From assembly GCA_044229975.1 (NCBI GenBank), contig JBGARZ010000001.1:480001-544000 (forward strand): 64,000 bases of DNA, read 5' to 3'. Source of the stretch: Polyangiales bacterium. Lineage in GTDB: Bacteria > Myxococcota_A > Polyangia > Polyangiales > Ga0077539. The translations under genes and the position numbers were made by a program. Positions 46,790 to 58,025 of the stretch are shown here, one piece after another. Under the pieces are notes generated by a model. That model saw nothing but the letters and a program-made list of their open reading frames with translations, searched no databases and had not been told where the DNA came from. Position 1 is the first letter of the stretch, and each line of letters starts with the position of its first letter.

Positions 46790-48430
46790 ATGGTCGCCTC
46801 ATCCCTCGCGCTGCTGGTCGCGATCCCCATGCAGCTCGCAGGCGCGGCCGGGGTCGAGCTCGCTGGTGGCTACGACTCGACGGTGCTCAACCAGAGCACG
46901 CTCAACTACGGCGACGGCGCCCTCGCCCGCGGCGCGGTCGACCTCCAGTTGGGGCATCGCACCGAGACGGTCCGGCAGCTCCTTCGCACCCGCGGCGAGT
47001 ACTACTTCACCGACGGCGAGGGGCGCCGCATCGACGAGGGCGACTTCCTCTCCATCACCCGCTACGCGCTCCACGCCGAGCCGAGCGACACCTGGCAGAT
47101 CACGGGCGAGGCGACGTACACCCTCGGCCAGTCGTCGCTGCTGCTCGGGCGCACGGGCCGCGCGTTTACGTCGTTTCAGCGCGGCGTGTACGGCGACTAC
47201 ACCGGGCAGGTGCAGGCGCAGCACGACTTCAGCGAGCGCTTCCGCGCGGGGCTGCTCGCGGGCGTGCTCGGCCGCCACGCGGTGGACATCCCCGTCGAGG
47301 TCACGCGCAACAACATGCTGACCTTCGTGTCGGCCCTCGAGACCTCCTACGAGGTCAACGACGAGAACTCCATCCTCGTGGCCGCGCGCGGCGAGTACTT
47401 CCTCGTCGACGGCTACCTCGACTGGGTGCCGCGCATCCTCGGCTACGGCGGGTTGCGCCACCGCTTCGGCGAAAACATCACCCTCACCGTCCTCGGCGGC
47501 GTCGACTCCCTCGCCGACCAGAACGACACCTCCGACTTCTTCGTCGGCCCGTACGGCAACGCCGCGCTCTCCGTGGCCATCCCCGACGAGCACCTCGCGT
47601 TCGGCCTCGGCACCCGCTACGAGTACGCCATCGTCGCCACCACGCGATGCAACCGCCCGGTGCTGGGCCAGCCATGCCCCGCGAGCGAGATCATCCCCGG
47701 CGGCACCGGCCGCGTGCTCGGCAGCAACCTGAGCTTCCTGTGGCGCCCCGGTGAAGGGCGCGTGGCCTTCACGGGCGACGTCAACGCCGACTACGGCACC
47801 ACCGAGACCGCCGTCCCCGGCATGGTCGGCGCCACCCGCGAGATCGAGTCGCTCAACCTGTCGGCGCTGGCGGGCGTGCGCTTCATCGTGTCGCGCAACC
47901 TCTCGTTCTTCGCCCGCTACAACTTCCTGTACTCGGACATCGACATGGGCGGTCCGGCCCCGCTGCCTGGTGTCATCAACGTGCTGGTGCGCCACGTCGC
48001 CTTCGCCGGCCTCACCTTCGCGCTCGGCACCGACGACGACGGGGTCACCGAGCCGATGATTCCGCTCGAAGAGATCGAAGCGTTGCAGGACGCGCAGGGC
48101 GGCTCCGGCGGAGCCCCGACCGGCGGCGAGAGCGACCCGCTCACGAGCGACCCCTTCGACCTCGTGGCCGCCGACGACGCCGCCAACCGGGTGGGCGAAG
48201 CGGGCTCCGGGCTCATCCCCCCGCCCGTCGACCCCAACGCTCCGGTCGACCCCAACGCCCCGCCGCCGCCGCGGCCGCGCACGGCGACCCAGCCGAGCAC
48301 CCACGGCTCCACGCAACGATCGACCGCGCCGGTGAACCACGGCGGCGCACCGGTCGCCCCCAACACGCCACCGTCCGGCTCGACGCCGGGTGACACCGGC
48401 CTCGCACCGCAGGGAGAATCCAACCCATGA
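46790..48430 (+). CDS. Putative outer-membrane beta-barrel for polysaccharide export (Wzp/EpsX-like)
   Basis: Signal peptide and many alternating aromatic beta strands. First gene of the PCP-OPX operon; function inferred from context. Confidence 0.6.
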   Translation: MVASSLALLVAIPMQLAGAAGVELAGGYDSTVLNQSTLNYGDGALARGAVDLQLGHRTETVRQLLRTRGEYYFTDGEGRRIDEGDFLSITRYALHAEPSDTWQITGEATYTLGQSSLLLGRTGRAFTSFQRGVYGDYTGQVQAQHDFSERFRAGLLAGVLGRHAVDIPVEVTRNNMLTFVSALETSYEVNDENSILVAARGEYFLVDGYLDWVPRILGYGGLRHRFGENITLTVLGGVDSLADQNDTSDFFVGPYGNAALSVAIPDEHLAFGLGTRYEYAIVATTRCNRPVLGQPCPASEIIPGGTGRVLGSNLSFLWRPGEGRVAFTGDVNADYGTTETAVPGMVGATREIESLNLSALAGVRFIVSRNLSFFARYNFLYSDIDMGGPAPLPGVINVLVRHVAFAGLTFALGTDDDGVTEPMIPLEEIEALQDAQGGSGGAPTGGESDPLTSDPFDLVAADDAANRVGEAGSGLIPPPVDPNAPVDPNAPPPPRPRTATQPSTHGSTQRSTAPVNHGGAPVAPNTPPSGSTPGDTGLAPQGESNP

Positions 48431-50004
48431 CCATGGGAGAAAAGGAAGACCAGCCGCTCTCGCTCAAAGACCTGCTGGCCAACTACGCCGCGCTCGCGCG
48501 ACGGGGCTTGCGGTACTGGAAGCGCGGCGCCGCCATCTTCACGGTGATCTTCATCGCCGGGATGGCGTGGGTCGTGACGCGACCGCGCACCTACCGCTCC
48601 GAGGCGCGCTTCCAGGTGCAGGAGCAGGAGCGCTCCGACGGCAACGGGCCGGGCGCCGAGGAGGTGCAGCGCTCCATCGACAACCGGCTGTCGCAGGTCT
48701 ACGGGTCGCGCACCAACATCCTCGCGCTCATCACGCGGCTGCACCTGTTTCCGCTGCTCCAGGGGAAGACGTCGGAGACCAAGCTCGCCGAGCTGTTCTG
48801 GGGCGCGCTCGACCGCAAGGTGGAGACCGACACCGTGCAGATCGGGTTCAAGTACGGCGACCCCCAGGACGCGCAGCGGGTGGTGCGCGGGCTCATCGAC
48901 CTCTTCGTCAACGCGCGGCGCAACACCGCCGTCGAGCGAGCGCGCGAGGCCTTCCAGACCATCGACGCGCAGTTTCACCAGCTGGAGCAGTCGCTCGCCG
49001 ACCGGCAGCAGTCGTTCGACCAGTTCGTGCTGGCCAACCCGGAGATGGTCGAGATCGTGCGGCGCCGACTCCAGGGCGGGCCGGTCATCAACGTGGGCGG
49101 CCCCGGCCAGCAGGTCGCGCGCCCGGAGCCGGAGAACCCCCGCGACTCGATGCGTACGCGCCGCCTGCGCACCCGCATCGCGCAGCTCACGGCGAGCGTG
49201 GAGTCGCTGCGCAACCCGGGGCAGGCGGCCGCGCCGCAGGCCGACGAGCCGGCCGCCCTCACCGAGCTGCGTACGCGGGTGCAGACCAAGCGCACCGAGG
49301 TCGAGGGCCTGCGTCAGCGCTTCTCCGCCGACTACCCCACGCGGGCCGCCGCCGAGCGTGAGCTCACCGCCATGAACAACGAGCTCGCCGCCGCCGTCGC
49401 GCGCTTCCGCGGCGCTCAGCAGAGCCAGGCCAACCTCTCGCAGTCCGAGCGCGAGCAGCGCATCGAGCAGGTCAACCGCGACCTCCAGGCGGCGCGCATC
49501 GAGCTCGCCGACAGCCAGCGCTCCGACAGCGCCGGTAGCGGCGCGCACCCCACCGCGCCCGCGCCCGTCCCCACCGCGCGCAACCCGCTCACCCGCACCA
49601 CGTTGGTCGAGGTCGAGGCCGAGTACACGCGGCTCAACACCGACGTCACCACCACCCGCGCCAGCTACCAGGAGCTCCTGCGGCGCCGCCTCGACTCGCA
49701 GGCCCTCCTGCGCCGGGCCGAGCTCAGCGGCGGCGAGCAGATTCGCGTGCTCGACGCCCCGTCGCTGCCCATCGAGCCCGAGCCGCCGGGGCGCACCAAG
49801 CTCGGGATGATCGTCTGCATCTTGGCCGGGCTCTTCGCCCTCGGCACCGCCCTCGTCTCGGGCTTCATCGACACCCGCATCTACGACCAGGACGACCTGC
49901 GTCGCTGGGGTGAGCTCGTCGAGCTGCCGTTCATCCCCGACCTGCACCTCGATGGCAGCGGCACCCGCCGTCCGCTCTCCACCCCGCCCGACCCTTCGGG
50001 ATAG
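48427..50004 (+). CDS. Polysaccharide co-polymerase / chain-length determinant (Wzc-like, no kinase domain)
   Basis: N-terminal TM + PRTYRSEA, coiled coil, YPT, IRVLDAPSLP...P + TM + DTRI. ATGA overlap. Confidence 0.85.
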   Translation: MTMGEKEDQPLSLKDLLANYAALARRGLRYWKRGAAIFTVIFIAGMAWVVTRPRTYRSEARFQVQEQERSDGNGPGAEEVQRSIDNRLSQVYGSRTNILALITRLHLFPLLQGKTSETKLAELFWGALDRKVETDTVQIGFKYGDPQDAQRVVRGLIDLFVNARRNTAVERAREAFQTIDAQFHQLEQSLADRQQSFDQFVLANPEMVEIVRRRLQGGPVINVGGPGQQVARPEPENPRDSMRTRRLRTRIAQLTASVESLRNPGQAAAPQADEPAALTELRTRVQTKRTEVEGLRQRFSADYPTRAAAERELTAMNNELAAAVARFRGAQQSQANLSQSEREQRIEQVNRDLQAARIELADSQRSDSAGSGAHPTAPAPVPTARNPLTRTTLVEVEAEYTRLNTDVTTTRASYQELLRRRLDSQALLRRAELSGGEQIRVLDAPSLPIEPEPPGRTKLGMIVCILAGLFALGTALVSGFIDTRIYDQDDLRRWGELVELPFIPDLHLDGSGTRRPLSTPPDPSG

Positions 50005-50057
50005 TCCCGCTGCCAGCGATTGCCACCGAAGCCCGCGGGTATGATACATCGCGGGCC

Positions 50058-50639
50058 ATGCGTGGACTGCGCCCCCTCTGCCTCGCCGCCCTCCTCTCCC
50101 TCCCCGCCTGCCGCGGAACGCTCTCGGGCCCTTGGCCGCCCGTCGAGTCGGGCGTGCAGGAGTACCGCGTGGGTGCGGGCGACATCGTCCGCATCTCGGT
50201 GTTCGGCAACGCCGAGCTCAACACCCGGGTGACGGTTCGTCCCGACGGCCGCATCACGCTGCCGCTCCTCAACGAGGTCACCGTCTCGGGCAAGACCATC
50301 AACGACATCACCCGCGAGGTCACCGAAGGGTACCGCCGCTTCCAGCAGGACGCGCGGGTCGCCGTGGTCGTCGAGGAGGTGCACAGCTACCGGGTGTTCG
50401 TGACCGGCAAGGTCATCCGCCCGGGTGACTTCGAGTCGCGCACCCCCGTCAACGTGGTGCAGGCCCTCGCCCTCGCCGGCGGCGGCGCGCGCGGCGCCAA
50501 CCTCGATCACATCATCGTGCTGCGCCGGGCCACCAACGGCCGCGAGGAGCGCTACGAGGTGTCCATCAACGACATCCTCGAAGGCCAGATGCAGCAGAAC
50601 TTCACGCTGCGCTCCGGCGACACCGTCGTCGTCCCCTGA
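50058..50639 (+). CDS. Short OPX (Wza-like) polysaccharide export protein
   Basis: YRVGAGD, VRPDGRITLPLL (PES motif), VTGKVIRPG, LALAGG, ends LRSGDTVVVP with no C-terminal helix. Lipobox LPAC. Confidence 0.92.
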   Translation: MRGLRPLCLAALLSLPACRGTLSGPWPPVESGVQEYRVGAGDIVRISVFGNAELNTRVTVRPDGRITLPLLNEVTVSGKTINDITREVTEGYRRFQQDARVAVVVEEVHSYRVFVTGKVIRPGDFESRTPVNVVQALALAGGGARGANLDHIIVLRRATNGREERYEVSINDILEGQMQQNFTLRSGDTVVVP

Positions 50640-52430: not shown

Positions 52431-53324
52431 TCAGTACTCGCCCCGACCCGCGATGCGGATGCGCGACGCCGACTGCGTCTCGTCCCACAGCTCCCCCTCG
52501 CGCCACGCGACCTCGCCCGTGGTGCCCCAGCCCACCTCCTTCACGGTGGTGCCTTCGATGTTCATCCAGAGCAGGCCGCCGTCCGAGCGCGTCGCCTGGT
52601 CGAGGCACGCCACCCGCGTCGTCGCCCCGTTGTCCCAGTACAGCGTCGCCGCGTGCGGAACATGGATGTGCCCGCACAGCACCCAGGTCGGCCGCAGCCG
52701 CGTGACCAGCAGCGCCGCGTAGGGGTTGCCCACCTGCGGCCAGTGCGCGCGACGGATGCCCCGCGCACCCACCACCGCGACGGCGCTCTCGGTCCCGGCG
52801 ATGCCCCGCGGCCACTCGTGCATCAAAAGCAGGTCGGCGCGATCGACCGCACACGCCGCGTCGACATCGTCCTTGCGGAAGTACCCCGCCTGCTTGTTGG
52901 TCTCTGCGTTGGACGCCGGAACCCTCGGCCGAAGGTACCGCGTCGGCGCGTAGATGCCCGACAGGAAGCCCACCCGCAGCCCGTCGATGACCCGCGACCC
53001 CGCGCGGCCCAGGTAGTGGACCCCGGGCGCGAGCGTTCCGCCGTCGGGCATCACGTCGAGCTCTTCGAAGCTCTCGTTGTTGCCGCCCACGAAATAGAAC
53101 GGCCGCGCCATCTGCCGCTCGCCCGTCGCGTACGCCGAAAACTCCGCGGGCATGTTGCGCTTGGTCGCCTTGCGCCGGTGATCGTCGGGCGTCGAGAAGG
53201 TCTCCACATCGCCGACACACAACACCGAGGACACACGCTCGCCCCGCGCCTGCTCCAGCGCGTCCACCCACTCCTCGACCCGGAAGAACCTTCCGTGCAC
53301 ATCTCCGACCACGGCCACGAGCAT
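52431..53324 (-). CDS. Metallophosphoesterase, Dbr1 (RNA lariat debranching enzyme)-like
   Basis: GDVHG, CVGD, GGNNE, APGVHYLG, LSGIY, MHEWP, CGHIH, VACLD. Motif order and inter-motif sequence resemble eukaryotic Dbr1. Confidence 0.8.
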   Translation of the reverse strand: MLVAVVGDVHGRFFRVEEWVDALEQARGERVSSVLCVGDVETFSTPDDHRRKATKRNMPAEFSAYATGERQMARPFYFVGGNNESFEELDVMPDGGTLAPGVHYLGRAGSRVIDGLRVGFLSGIYAPTRYLRPRVPASNAETNKQAGYFRKDDVDAACAVDRADLLLMHEWPRGIAGTESAVAVVGARGIRRAHWPQVGNPYAALLVTRLRPTWVLCGHIHVPHAATLYWDNGATTRVACLDQATRSDGGLLWMNIEGTTVKEVGWGTTGEVAWREGELWDETQSASRIRIAGRGEY

Positions 53325-53449: not shown

Positions 53450-54064
53450 TCAGCGGTAGCGGGCGAGGGTCTCGACGAAGCGTGCCTCGGCCACGTCGAG
53501 CCACGCCGCCGGGGCCTCGGCCAGGGTCGCCGCGAGGGCCTCGCTCCAACGCTCCAGGATGGACGCGCCGGGTGACTCACCCGCGGAGCGCACGGGCAGC
53601 CCGATGGCCTCGACGATGTCCTGGGCGCGCTCGGTCTCGAGCAGACGGAGGGCGTTGCGCAGGGCGGCGCGCACCCGCTCGGCCTCGATCTCGGAGAAGA
53701 CCGGGTCGGCCGGCTGACGGTGCGCCGCGAAGTACCGGCGCAGCAGCAGACCCGCGCCGTAGGTGCGGTAGACGTTGGCGACGGCGTCGGCGGCGCGACC
53801 CCCGGGGACGAAGCGCTCGATCACCCAACGAACGCCCTGCGTGACGTTGCCGCGGATGGTCGCGGTCTCCTCGATGTCCACCAGGATGCGGCGCGCCCCG
53901 GTGGTGAGCACCACGCCGTAGCTGCGCGCGAGGCGGTCGACCATGGCCGCGCGGAGGGTTCGCACCACGGGGGTGTCGACCATGGGCGGCAGCCCCAGTC
54001 GCGCGGCCCCCGCGAGGAGGCCGTACATCGCCAGCACCGAGTCGCTCTGGGCTCGTTCGCTCAT
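53450..54064 (-). CDS. Hypothetical protein (possibly DUF697-like)
   Basis: Helical ORF with LPPMVD...MVDRLARSYGV, divergent from the P450. Confidence 0.6.
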   Translation of the reverse strand: MSERAQSDSVLAMYGLLAGAARLGLPPMVDTPVVRTLRAAMVDRLARSYGVVLTTGARRILVDIEETATIRGNVTQGVRWVIERFVPGGRAADAVANVYRTYGAGLLLRRYFAAHRQPADPVFSEIEAERVRAALRNALRLLETERAQDIVEAIGLPVRSAGESPGASILERWSEALAATLAEAPAAWLDVAEARFVETLARYR

Positions 54065-54133
54065 GGGGCGACACCGTACCGGAGCGAAGGGCGCCCTGGA
54101 AGCCGTGACCCGCAACCGTTACCGTCGCGCGCC

Positions 54134-55495
54134 ATGAGCCTGCCGCCCGGCCCGACGAGCCCTACCCCCTGGATGCTGGTGCGCTGGATGCGAACGCCCT
54201 TCGAGGTCATGGAGGAGTGCCGCACACGCTACGGCGAGACCTTCCTGCTGCGCCTCGGAGCGCTGCCGCCGTTGGTGATCCTGTCCAACCCCGACCATGT
54301 GAGGGAGGTGTTCGCGAGCGCGGGCGACGACATGCACGGCGGCGAGATCGGCAGCGGCCTCAAGCCCTTCCTCGGCGAGCGCTCGGTCATCGTCCTCGAC
54401 GGTCAGCCCCACCGCGCGATGCGCAAGCTGGTGATGCCGCCCTTCCACGGCGAGCGCATGCACGCCTACGGGCAGCAGATGGTGGAGCTCACCCACGCCT
54501 CCATCGACGCGTGGCCCGTCGGCAAGACCTTCGCCGCGCACGAGCCGCTCCAGCAGATCACCCTCGACGTCATCCTGCGCACGGTGTTTGGCGTCGACGA
54601 CGCGGCCGCCCGCAAGCAGCTCGGCGACCGCCTCACGCGGCTCATGGACATCGCCTCGTGGCCGCCGCTGCTCATCCCGCAGGTGCAGCGCGACCTCGGG
54701 CCGTGGAGCCCGTGGGGCCGCTACCTGCGCGAGTCCAAGGTGGCCGACGACTCGCTCCTCGCCGAGATCGCGCGACGACGACGCGAAGGCACCGAGGGGC
54801 GAACGGACATCCTGTCGATGTTTCTCGGGGCACGCGACGAGGAGGGCAACGGGCTCGACGACCATGCCCTGCGCGACCAGCTCGTGACGCTGCTCGTCGC
54901 CGGTCACGAGACCACCGCCACCGCCCTCGCGTGGACCCTCCGCTGGGTGCTCGCCCTCCCCGCCGTGCGCGCGAAGCTGCTCGCCGAACTCCACGCCGCC
55001 GAGCGCAAGGGGCCGCTCACCCCCGAGCGCATCGCGAAGCTCGAATACCTCGACGCCACCGTGCGCGAGGCCCTGCGGATGCAGCCCGTCATCCCGCTGG
55101 TGGGGCGCATCCTCCAGCAGCCCATGCGCTTCGCGGGCTACGACCTCCCCGCGGGCGTCGGCCTCGCGCCGTCGGTCTACCTCCTCCACCAGAACCCCAG
55201 CCTCTACGACCACCCCACGCGCTTCGAACCCGAGCGCTTCATCGGCCGGCAATACAAGGCCCACGAGTGGATCCCCTTCGGTGGGGGCATCCGTAAGTGC
55301 ATCGGGATGGCCTTCGCCATCTACGAGATGAAGATGGTGCTCGCGACCATGCTGTCGCGCGTCTGGCTGCGCGTCGCGCCCGGGTACTCACCGCGCGCCG
55401 TGCGACGCAGCATCACGCTCACGCCCTCCGAGGGCATGCCCGTCATCGCCGACGCCGTGCTCCCGCGCGGCGCCCCCATCGTCGCCGCCGCTTGA
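54134..55495 (+). CDS. Cytochrome P450
   Basis: LPPGP, AGHETT (I-helix), EALR (K-helix), PERF, FGGGIRKCIG (heme Cys). Confidence 0.96.
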   Translation: MSLPPGPTSPTPWMLVRWMRTPFEVMEECRTRYGETFLLRLGALPPLVILSNPDHVREVFASAGDDMHGGEIGSGLKPFLGERSVIVLDGQPHRAMRKLVMPPFHGERMHAYGQQMVELTHASIDAWPVGKTFAAHEPLQQITLDVILRTVFGVDDAAARKQLGDRLTRLMDIASWPPLLIPQVQRDLGPWSPWGRYLRESKVADDSLLAEIARRRREGTEGRTDILSMFLGARDEEGNGLDDHALRDQLVTLLVAGHETTATALAWTLRWVLALPAVRAKLLAELHAAERKGPLTPERIAKLEYLDATVREALRMQPVIPLVGRILQQPMRFAGYDLPAGVGLAPSVYLLHQNPSLYDHPTRFEPERFIGRQYKAHEWIPFGGGIRKCIGMAFAIYEMKMVLATMLSRVWLRVAPGYSPRAVRRSITLTPSEGMPVIADAVLPRGAPIVAAA

Positions 55496-55506
55496 CCCGT
55501 CGACCC

Positions 55507-56751
55507 GTGCGACGCGTCCTCCTCTTCGTCGGCCTCGCGCTCGCCTGCCGCCGACCGCGCCCTGCGCCTGTCACGCCGCCGCCCGTGGTGACGGAGGTCG
55601 ACGCCGGGCCGCCGCCCATCGTGCTGGAGACGCCGCCGCCCGCCGCGCCGCCGCGGATGTTTCGCTTCGACGCGAGGCACACCGGGCGCAGCGGGTACCG
55701 CCTCCCGCGACGGCCGCAGATCGTCGCCCACTTCGCGACGCGCGCGCGCATCACGTCGCAGCCGGTGGTGAGCTCGCGCGGGGCGGTGGTGGTGACCTCC
55801 CACGACGGCGTGGTGTACGGGCTCGCGCGCGACGGCTCGCTGACCTGGCAGGTGAACACCGGCGACCGCGTCTACACGACGCCGCTCGTTCGCGATGACG
55901 GCACCATGGTGCTCGGCACCGACGCCGACCGGGTGGTGGTGCTCGGCCCCAACGGGACGCTCCAGCTCGCGCTCGGAACCACCGACGACGCCGACACCTC
56001 ACCGGCCGCTGCGGCGGATGGGTCGCTGCGCTTCGGGGCGGGACACTCGCTCTACGCGACAGAGGCCGACCTCACGGTGCGATGGCGGCTCGACCTCGGT
56101 GGAAAGGTGTTTTCGTCGCCCGCGGTGACCGCGGATGGCGTCGCGGTGATGGGCTCGCAGGACGACCGCGTGCGCGCGATCGACCCGGACGGGGGCGTTC
56201 GGTGGACGCTCGCGACGGGTGACGACGTGGACGCGCCGCCCGCGATCGGCGACGACGGGACGGTGTACGTGGGCGGCGACGACGGGGCGCTGCGGGCCAT
56301 CGCGGCTGACGGCACCGAGCGGTGGCAGCGACGGCTCGGCGGCTATGTGCGCGCGGGCGTGGCGCTGGGCCTGGACGGATCGCTGGTGGTGGGCACCTAC
56401 GGTCCGCGGGCGCAGGTGGTGGCCGTCGACCGGGCGACGGGTGAGGAGCGCTGGCATCGGGCGGTGCCGGGTCCGCCGACGCGGGACTACGGCGTGGCGT
56501 CGAGCGCGCTGGTGGACGTCCATGGGTCGTACGCGGTGGGCGTACCCGACGACGCGCTGTGGTTTCTCGGGCGGGACGGTGGGTTGCTCGCGCGGGTGAC
56601 GCTGCCCGCGGATGTCGACAGCAGCCCCGCCCTCATCGACGACGGAATTCTGGTGGTGGGCTGCGATGATGGGGTGGTGTATTTCATCGGGGACGGTCCC
56701 GCGGCCGATGGCGGATCAGGCGCGCAAACACCACGAGGGGACGACCGATGA
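55507..56751 (+). CDS. PQQ-like beta-propeller repeat lipoprotein
   Basis: Lipobox LALAC and repeated SSPA...DG....GS.D....A....G...W units. Confidence 0.85.
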   Translation: MRRVLLFVGLALACRRPRPAPVTPPPVVTEVDAGPPPIVLETPPPAAPPRMFRFDARHTGRSGYRLPRRPQIVAHFATRARITSQPVVSSRGAVVVTSHDGVVYGLARDGSLTWQVNTGDRVYTTPLVRDDGTMVLGTDADRVVVLGPNGTLQLALGTTDDADTSPAAAADGSLRFGAGHSLYATEADLTVRWRLDLGGKVFSSPAVTADGVAVMGSQDDRVRAIDPDGGVRWTLATGDDVDAPPAIGDDGTVYVGGDDGALRAIAADGTERWQRRLGGYVRAGVALGLDGSLVVGTYGPRAQVVAVDRATGEERWHRAVPGPPTRDYGVASSALVDVHGSYAVGVPDDALWFLGRDGGLLARVTLPADVDSSPALIDDGILVVGCDDGVVYFIGDGPAADGGSGAQTPRGDDR

Positions 56752-58025
56752 GTGACACGACCACCGAGCGCGAATGGAACCGCACCCGAGGCAGCGCGCC
56801 CAACGTCCTGGCGATGGTGCTGGCGGGCGGCGAGGGGCGACGGCTGTCGCCGTTGACGTTGGAGCGCGCGAAGCCCGCGGTGCCCTTCGGCGGGCGCTAC
56901 CGGATCATCGACGTGGTGCTCTCCAACCTGGTCAACTCCAACATCTCCCGCATCAAGGTGCTGACCCAGTACAAGTCGGCGTCGCTGGAGGAGCACATCG
57001 CGCGGGCGTGGCGGCTGTCGCCCATCCTCGACGGCTTCATCGAGACCATCCCGGCGCAGCAGCGCACGGGGCTGTCGTGGTTCAAGGGCAGCGCCGACGC
57101 GGTGTGGCAGTGCTTCAACGCCATCGAAGACGCCAACCCCGACTTCGTGGCGATCTTCGGCGGCGACCACATCTACAAGATGGACGTTCGGCCGATGCTC
57201 GATCGGCACTTCGACACGCACGCCGACCTCACCGTCGCGGGCATCCCGGTGCCCACCGCCGACGCGCTCGGCTTCGGGGTGCTCCAGGTCGACGAGGAGG
57301 GCCGCGTCATCGACTTCGTGGAGAAGTCGCGCAACCCGCCAGAGATTCCTGGGCGCCCTGGTTGGGTGCTCGCCTCGATGGGCAACTACATCTTCACGAC
57401 GGGGGTGCTCGCCGAGGAGCTCCAGCGCGACTCGCAGGAGGAGGACAGCGCCCACGACTTCGGCAAGAGCATCCTGCCAGCGATGGTCCAGTCGGGGCGG
57501 CGGGTGATGCTCTTCGACTACGGCACCAACGAGATTCCCGGCGAGGGCCCCACCACCTACTGGCGCGATATCGGGACCATCCAGGCGTACTTCGACGCGC
57601 ACATGGACCTCGTGGAGATCAAGCCGGAGTTCAACCTCTACAACCGGCGCTGGCCCATTCGCACGGGGATGAGCTTCGACCCGCCGGCGAAGTTCGTGTT
57701 CAGCGACCAGACGACGGCGCGCGTGGGGAGCGCGACGGACTCGCTGGTGAGCGACGGGTGCATCATCTCCGGCGGGCTCATCCACCGCGCGGTGCTCTCG
57801 GCGGGCGTGCGGGTCAACTCCTTCTCCCACGTCGAGCAGTGCGTGCTGCTGGAGCGCGTGCAGGTGGGCCGCCACGCGCGGCTGCGGCGGGTCATCGTCG
57901 ACAAGGACGTGGAGATCCCCGCCGGGATGCAGATCGGCTTCGACCTCGAAGAAGACCGCAAGCGCTTCACCGTCACCGACGAGGGCCTCGTGGTCATCCC
58001 GAAGCGCGCCCGCCTCACGGGCTGA
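56748..58025 (+). CDS. glgC: Glucose-1-phosphate adenylyltransferase
   Basis: LAGGEGRRLSPLT, RAKPAVPFGGRYR, GGDHIYKMD, FVEK, ASMGNY, DFGK, YWRDIGT. Confidence 0.97.
   Translation: MSDTTTEREWNRTRGSAPNVLAMVLAGGEGRRLSPLTLERAKPAVPFGGRYRIIDVVLSNLVNSNISRIKVLTQYKSASLEEHIARAWRLSPILDGFIETIPAQQRTGLSWFKGSADAVWQCFNAIEDANPDFVAIFGGDHIYKMDVRPMLDRHFDTHADLTVAGIPVPTADALGFGVLQVDEEGRVIDFVEKSRNPPEIPGRPGWVLASMGNYIFTTGVLAEELQRDSQEEDSAHDFGKSILPAMVQSGRRVMLFDYGTNEIPGEGPTTYWRDIGTIQAYFDAHMDLVEIKPEFNLYNRRWPIRTGMSFDPPAKFVFSDQTTARVGSATDSLVSDGCIISGGLIHRAVLSAGVRVNSFSHVEQCVLLERVQVGRHARLRRVIVDKDVEIPAGMQIGFDLEEDRKRFTVTDEGLVVIPKRARLTG

Follow-up and report, generated by a model that had tools for sequence, protein, structure and literature searches.

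A Dbr1-family metallophosphoesterase variant of Myxococcota with asparagine in place of the general-acid histidine

Analysis of a 64,000-nucleotide stretch of DNA from a Polyangiales bacterium (hereafter, the window) revealed a minus-strand gene for a variant of the Dbr1 family that is conserved and, it appears, undescribed. The encoded protein of 297 aa has the fold and the five-motif metal-ligand set of the binuclear metallophosphoesterase (MPE) superfamily, with a PF00149 match above cut-off, and combines the closest sequence and structure match to Dbr1 among MPEs with a lariat-recognition loop that bears the invariant Arg158. It is not Dbr1 proper, however, because it lacks four defining features: the Cys-x-His motif (Asp for Cys in 119 of the 121 listed clade members, the other two being truncated), the general-acid His (Asn in all 121), Tyr64 (Arg in 120 of 121) and the helical C-terminal domain (absent).

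Coding status and kinship to Dbr1

The reading frame runs from ATG to TGA, and its GC content by codon position (0.69/0.51/0.92) follows the coding pattern of the source genome, which is absent from both the overlapping plus-strand ORF (0.91/0.52/0.69) and the ORF in the other minus-strand frame (0.83/0.73/0.57). Comparison with seven close homologues (79-87% DNA identity) yielded dN/dS values of 0.135-0.22; the gene is real and under purifying selection. A sigma-70 scan revealed no promoter-like site, and sequencing runs contained only fragments or relatives, the contigs found in RNA libraries not being a sign of expression.

Residues were counted in the window protein plus 120 listed homologues (together 121, clade N), in 117 listed members of a His-bearing sister family (family B), in 57 representatives carrying the Dbr1 Cys motif (group E, whose membership is set by that motif and not by taxonomy) and in 120 members of a more distant family (family O). 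Dbr1 was represented by the Entamoeba histolytica enzyme and the 57 database sequences with the Cys motif, and its numbering follows PMC4176325 plus alignment with E. histolytica Dbr1.

A phmmer search of the PDB with the window protein retrieved E. histolytica Dbr1 (E 1.7e-19) and CWF19L1 (3.5e-4), and beyond these two nothing below E 0.27. The family profile, built from the window protein and 71 of the 120 listed homologues, returned Dbr1 at 6e-29, CWF19L1 at 5e-10 and LpxH at 0.18. When the AlphaFold model (pLDDT 92.9) was submitted to Foldseek, TMq reached 0.74-0.78 for Dbr1, 0.65 for CWF19L1 and at most 0.49 for other MPEs, whereas VIA-align over 48,161 chains aligned 252 residues to 4PEF (Z 29.2, rmsd 2.2), followed by CWF19L1 (Z 20.7) and aq_1956 (Z 17.3, non-Dbr1-family). 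Dbr1 is the closest solved relative by a wide margin, and the kinship is Dbr1-specific rather than that of a generic MPE. The original prediction had argued as much from eight Dbr1-like segments, all of which occur in the translation in the quoted order, and the comparison with Entamoeba Dbr1 that it proposed bears it out, Dbr1 ranking first by phmmer, profile, Foldseek and VIA-align alike. NCBIfam and PADLOC yielded no family for the protein, PHROGs returned phrog_1649 only (2e-5), and the ESM Atlas returned unnamed metallophosphoesterase clusters.

Table 1. Features of the window gene and its product (window coordinates).
Feature	Position	Strand	Basis
Dbr1-like binuclear metallophosphoesterase gene, 297 aa, Asp-x-His/GNNE clade of Myxococcota	52431..53324	-	homology, model, dN/dS
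Motif I, Asp8-x-His10; Asp8 at Dbr1 Cys14 position	53295..53303	-	alignment; Asp in 119/121 listed clade members, 2 truncated
Clade-specific basic loop Arg50-Arg51-Lys52-x-x-Lys55-Arg56; Arg56 at Dbr1 base-stacking Tyr64	53157..53177	-	alignment
Motif III, GNNE; Asn83 in place of Dbr1 general-acid His91	53073..53084	-	Asn in 121/121 listed clade members
Loop Ser122-Arg150, lariat-recognition loop equivalent (E. histolytica 130-158), ending in invariant Arg	52875..52961	-	alignment
Span with metal ligands His169, His219, His221	52662..52820	-	each in 121/121 listed clade members
Clade-specific C-terminal extension, ~residues 262-297, with conserved Gly/Trp, replacing the Dbr1 helical C-terminal domain	52434..52541	-	homologue alignment, model

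With E. histolytica Dbr1 (PDB 4PEF, 4PEH, 5K73, 5K77, 5K78 and 5UKI) the window protein shares the MPE fold and the equivalents of His16, Asp45, Asp54, Tyr73, Asn90, Glu92, His180, His230 and His232, and all seven metal-ligand positions (D8, H10, D39, N82, H169, H219 and H221) are kept among the listed clade members. The predicted insertion at the position of the lariat-recognition loop indeed has the same place and length as in Dbr1, with 29 residues in each of the 121 listed clade members, and its equally constant Arg150 (121/121) aligns with Arg158, invariant in 57/57 Dbr1 sequences. Of the five RNA-contact residues in this loop, only Ile132 is identical, the other four being changed. Among 13 residues required in yeast Dbr1, which we mapped onto the window protein ourselves, nine are identical, one is conservatively replaced and three are changed.

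The differences are equally consistent. The Asp at Cys14 and the Asn at His91, both of which had been noticed in the original prediction, proved to be clade-wide and not sequencing errors; Arg50 and Tyr74 of Dbr1 are not kept either, and Glu41 occupies the Gln47 position. Features of its own, relative to Dbr1, are the basic loop and the C-terminal extension. In the loop, R51 and K55 are present in all 121 listed clade members and K52 and R56 in 120, so that together with Arg12 the residues Arg51, Lys52 and Lys55 form a further set of basic positions fixed or nearly so in clade N. The AlphaFold model is less confident here (block pLDDT 79 and 65), and the position assigned to the loop, above the active site, is putative and taken from the alignment with Dbr1. 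Toward the C terminus, the structural match to 4PEF stops at model residue 261 (chain residue 266), and a Pfam scan of the protein found no DBR1 C-terminal match.

The second-best match, the N-terminal pseudo-MPE domain of CWF19L1/Drn1 (PDB 8RO2 and 8RO1), belongs to a Dbr1 relative without a debranching role. Drn1 orthologues have lost most catalytic residues (PMC4105757) and carry CwfJ domains, whereas the window protein has all metal ligands and stands alone. The intact ligands and the absence of a CwfJ match in the Pfam scan rule out a pseudo-enzyme of the Drn1/CWF19L1 type.

Active site and candidate activities

The general-acid His is present in 117/117 listed members of family B and in 56 of the 57 eukaryotic-type Dbr1 sequences, but in none of the 121 listed members of clade N, where no replacement His is available since the four invariant His of the clade are all metal ligands. 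One eukaryotic-type Dbr1 with the Cys motif (P0249) independently has Asn both at the general-acid site and in place of the loop His.

This substitution throughout the listed clade speaks against the activity that had been envisaged for the window protein, 2'-5' phosphodiester cleavage in msDNA or in group II lariats. We regard it as distinctly unlikely that the protein is a true bacterial debrancher, in which Lys55, Tyr148 or a metal-bound water would substitute for the general acid in 2'-5' cleavage. The wide margin by which Dbr1 is the closest structure, the conservation of most residues needed in yeast Dbr1, and the retrons and group II introns of the source genome all speak for such an enzyme. 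However, yeast Dbr1 H86N phenocopies the dbr1 deletion while keeping 42% of bis-p-nitrophenylphosphate hydrolysis, C11D is left with only 7% of that activity (PMC5113202), and complementation is lost once the C-terminal domain is removed (PMC4176325); moreover, the clade N gene is retained in genomes free of reverse transcriptase (RT).

Because the general-acid His is missing and the gene is kept in RT-free genomes, an easier bond is likely cut, for example a pyrophosphate cap. We therefore tentatively favor, by analogy with other MPEs, a possible role as a two-metal hydrolase that would use the Dbr1 scaffold to cleave a phosphoanhydride-type linkage at, or close to, the ends of nucleic acids; the exact substrate, such as the 5'-5' pyrophosphate of an adenylylated or nucleotide-capped DNA or RNA end, is a guess. 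Like other MPEs, the protein would bind two divalent metals and activate water. Asn83 would be unable to donate a proton to a leaving group such as the 2'-O or 3'-O of ribose, which would make ordinary or 2'-5' phosphodiesters poor substrates, and a phosphate leaving group would need no general acid. Arg12, Arg51, Lys52, Lys55 and Arg56 would neutralize the second phosphate, and the kept loop would hold a single-stranded arm, as might befit a housekeeping role in end healing or decapping.

The invariant metal ligands and the purifying selection, unlike the situation in Drn1, count for an active phosphoanhydride hydrolase. So do, by analogy, His-to-Asn enzymes that lose nucleic-acid cleavage yet keep hydrolysis of activated esters: besides yeast H86N, the H113N variant of a Pseudomonas putida MPE is inert on DNA and has 34% activity on bis-p-nitrophenylphosphate (PMC7826289). 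In CthPnkp, H264N selectively inhibits the cyclic phosphodiesterase activity (PMC2190708). Natural enzymes without the general-acid His, namely the MJ0936/YfcE phosphodiesterases and the LpxH pyrophosphatase (Asn, Cys or Arg), are likewise active on good leaving groups, and in LpxH the Arg at the His site holds the second phosphate (PMC5016852). These proteins are structurally distant from the window protein (Z 8.4-10.2) and have no lariat-recognition loop, so that the comparison is one of analogy only; on this footing, clade N probably comprises active hydrolases restricted to good leaving groups. A conserved His-less active site on a Dbr1 scaffold would amount to a new specificity.

The same analogy also feeds a second reading, which we consider rather doubtful: a YfcE/MJ0936-like phosphodiesterase or pyrophosphatase of small-molecule metabolism that does not act on polymers and whose loop is merely inherited structure. 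MJ0936, a natural Asn enzyme, is active on small diesters and does not cleave cyclic nucleotides (PMC2190708), and this activity on non-nucleic-acid substrates counts, by analogy, against the nucleic-acid-end reading. The predicted pI of the window protein (6.3) and the unrelated metabolic or envelope genes that surround it in its lineage also suit a metabolic enzyme. On the other hand, the invariant loop length and Arg, together with five further fixed basic residues, are more than would be expected for a small neutral substrate.

It is highly improbable that the protein hydrolyzes 2'-5'-linked or cyclic signaling nucleotides (2'3'-cGAMP, 2-5A or 2',3'-cNMP) in phage defense or counter-defense. 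In favor of such substrates, the Dbr1 fold is organized for 2'-5' geometry. Against them, cyclic phosphodiesterase activity is determined by the His (PMC2190708), no PADLOC match and no defense genes among the conserved neighbors were found, and inheritance is vertical and single-copy. In addition, no relative of the sister family occurs among annotated phages, and the best viral fold match reached a TM of 0.55.

Distribution, reverse transcriptases and gene neighborhood

Of the best 80 of 116 loci, one is titled Comamonas and the rest are titled Myxococcota, Polyangiales or unclassified (delta)proteobacteria. The exception (L049, Comamonas sp.) holds a Myxococcus-type gene with neighbors ordered as in Myxococcus loci and is probably mislabeled. 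All 24 genomes of the window's family carry the gene, which is absent from 16 other families sampled from the same order, and of 301 genomes sampled from the window's phylum, the only carriers were the three that belong to that family. In the phylum of Myxococcus sp. Y35, a single copy is present in each of 71 genomes out of 251, one of these carriers (G484) being unpublished. The clade N gene is therefore a single-copy core gene in two Myxococcota groups, and this distribution, together with persistence without any RT, fits a housekeeping role. A paralogue of family B accompanies it in only 25 of the 71 genomes, and the distant third type is all that the source genome has, which rules out an obligate pairing with the His-bearing paralogue. 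The orthologue in Myxococcus xanthus DK1622 is ABF88707.1, and the Stigmatella record EAU62490.1 is annotated as 'putative Lariat debranching enzyme', a name often used in JGI annotations. Since orthologues exist in the genetic model M. xanthus DK1622 and in Stigmatella, a deletion combined with a substrate screen would be simple.

The source genome contains a type XIII retron, with the RT at L102:964-2349 on contig C38 (PADLOC RT_XIII, E 5e-158) and a SWIM protein upstream (L102:8-655; SWIM_XIII, E 1e-45), which is unlinked to the window gene. It also has five group II intron RT copies (L097-L101; TIGR04416 above cut-off) on contigs C4, C14, C32 and C34 (twice), with Rfam RF02001 in the two that were scanned; their identical scores suggest recent mobility. 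Some RT occurs in 22 of the 24 genomes of the window's family. In the 251-genome set, the gene and a retron-type RT occur together in 54 genomes and are both missing from 146; a further 17 carry just the gene and 34 just the RT. These counts do not constitute a test because kin are not independent.

Linkage and presence in RT-free genomes tell otherwise. No RT lies within 6 kb of the gene in the best 80 of 116 loci (874 kb) or in 31 further loci. Of the 17 gene-only genomes, which lack a retron-type RT, 16 were tested, and 11 of these gave no RVT_1 match. One of the 11 is Cystobacter fuscus Cbf 10, which has a complete chromosome of 11.9 Mb and an intact gene; many of the remaining RT-free genomes have a small size and are perhaps incomplete. 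The absence of RT linkage in the best 80 loci and the RT-free genomes argue against a retron or group II intron accessory gene. In the proposed check by RT co-occurrence, 54 of 71 clade-bearing genomes had a retron-type RT, an association that follows kinship, and the lack of any RT in 11 of 16 tested genomes went against a role in msDNA or group II lariat processing.

The same data bear on a protein that would bind 2'-5' branches, in G-branched msDNA or group II lariats, without cutting them or cutting only slowly, as a sensor or chaperone. Myxobacterial retron msDNA branches at G. The residue at the position of Glu41, Gln47 in Dbr1, has been proposed to contact the branch G (PMC4176325), and the His-less yeast Dbr1-H86A binds branched RNA with a Kd of ~53 nM in Mn (PMC5113202). 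The retention of the lariat-recognition loop and its Arg in the listed members of clade N, the presence in the source genome of a type XIII retron and of five mutually identical group II introns, and retron-type RTs in 54/71 clade-bearing genomes as against 34/180 others also point to such a binder. Conversely, Tyr64, four of the five loop contacts and the loop-supporting C-terminal domain are changed or absent, Glu is found at the Gln47 position in 9/57 eukaryotic-type Dbr1 sequences too, 11 of 16 tested genomes with the gene (one of them a complete chromosome) have no RT at all, and the co-occurrence of gene and RT follows kinship. On balance we deem this binder unlikely.

As for the neighborhood, no conserved operon was found across lineages in the best 80 of 116 loci. 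Repair genes lie within 6 kb in 50 of these 80 loci (uvrA 39, addB 25, ada 7, ruvA 2), of which 48 represent one inherited syntenic block (48 of the 58 loci L023-L080). Of the 22 loci most closely related to the window, just two have such a neighbor, and none is found in the window itself. The repair genes near clade loci lend weak support to an end-healing role under the phosphoanhydride reading, and the link of the window gene itself to DNA repair is weak. No neighbor gene names a substrate, which counts against that reading. In a mitomycin C proteome of M. xanthus (PMC12288472, supplement), UvrA is among the changed proteins, and the differential-abundance table lists no MXAN_261x protein, the tag of the DK1622 orthologue being only a guess from synteny with uvrA (MXAN_2609); a literature search for MXAN_2611-2614 found no paper.

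Within the window, a slyD-type FKBP gene and a gene with an FGE-sulfatase domain flank the window gene. Upstream lie a DUF697-like gene, a gene for a cytochrome P450 and one for a PQQ-repeat beta-propeller protein (53450-56751), and then glgC (56748-58025); only the closest relatives keep this gene order. At 46790-50639 lies an exopolysaccharide export cluster (outer-membrane protein, Wzz-like chain-length and Wza-type export genes) beside glycosyltransferase-like genes.

Related bacterial families and the origin of Dbr1

Dbr1 is treated as eukaryote-specific; with bacterial relatives that bear a lariat-recognition loop, the question of where it came from becomes testable. Among 1.84 billion representatives, a profile search retrieved 2,409 matches and brought family B to light (~275 aa, Asp-x-His and GNHE; 537 matches in a separate search), with named members from Myxococcota, Acidobacteriota, Cyanobacteria and Verrucomicrobiota. 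By profile it is the nearest relative of the window protein (hhalign E 1e-71), with which it shares Asp as first ligand, Glu at the Gln47 position and the lack of a C-terminal domain. In contrast to clade N, it has His91 (117/117), Arg50 (117/117) and Tyr64 (110/117) among its listed members; Asp54 is kept, Arg158 is missing, and its distribution is patchy and accessory. The source genome itself encodes a member of the third, more distant Dbr1-like family O (L082:1060-2148, contig C19; 444 matches), with Asp-x-His, GNHE and a shorter loop.

On held-out sequences the eukaryotic profile gave median scores of 191 bits for family B, 142 for clade N and 75 for family O, and a model of family B matched Dbr1 with a TM of 0.81-0.84. 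Family B is closer to Dbr1 than clade N and is the better lead for the origin of Dbr1. Its His also makes it a more direct test of bacterial lariat debranching. The suggested relevance of the window protein to this origin is thus real, but indirect. Clade N shares with Dbr1 both Arg158 and a downstream Asp that family B lacks, and therefore the common ancestor probably had both sets of features.

Trees were rooted on family O, an assumed root, and bootstrap and AU tests covered 53 of 99 rows under LG+G4, with CWF19L1 included neither in trees nor in residue counts. Clade N (100) and group E (97-100) emerged as separate clades within an unresolved bacterial grade, and no tree recovered clade N and eukaryotic Dbr1 as one clade. 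AU tests rejected none of the arrangements (N+E, p 0.247; N+B, 0.329; N+O, 0.359; B alone, 0.196), so the phylogeny put forward as a check neither requires nor rejects clade N as sister to Dbr1 (p ~0.25). A bacterial source of Dbr1 is plausible, and clade N is not singled out. We can also picture, although we doubt it, an undescribed bacterial Dbr1 superfamily of at least three branches that gave rise to eukaryotic Dbr1 through an Asp-to-Cys change and the gain of the C-terminal domain, in which the His branch would debranch group II lariats or msDNA and the Asn branch would have been re-purposed as a reader of G-branched msDNA or capped ends, comparable to the Dbr1/Drn1 pair.

As far as we found in the full-text literature, a scope that leaves aside most subscription papers and bioRxiv supplements, the bacterial Dbr1-like families are undescribed. 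A 2025 review (PMC12238851) contains neither 'bacteri' nor 'prokaryot'; the principal phylogenomic analysis of how the spliceosome arose (PMC9887622) does not mention Dbr1 in its main text, and its supplement names DBR1, DRN1 and CWF19L1 among the proteins excluded; and the searchable supplements of PMC12872458 contain no Dbr1 term, its one scanned supplement, outside this search, possibly listing prokaryotic Dbr1 homologues. Term searches of PMC2887360, PMC10470207, PMC6022877 and PMC9705874 returned no relevant passage.

Scans for family B detected one locus in viral and five in metagenome sequences, none in annotated phages, and two weak archaeal matches in plasmids. Among individual sequences, P0161, with Asp in place of the Cys, is the first to branch off among the eukaryotic-type Dbr1 sequences, whereas P0165, P0211 and P0183 look eukaryotic yet fall among the bacterial His-bearing family, possibly through later transfer. 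Finally, at seven loci (L144, L146-L149, L153 and L154) the gene immediately downstream of the His-bearing paralogue, in the same orientation, is a similar one of 576-633 aa, which in L144 encodes a DeaD DEAD-box RNA helicase; this arrangement may reflect shared synteny or a link to RNA turnover.
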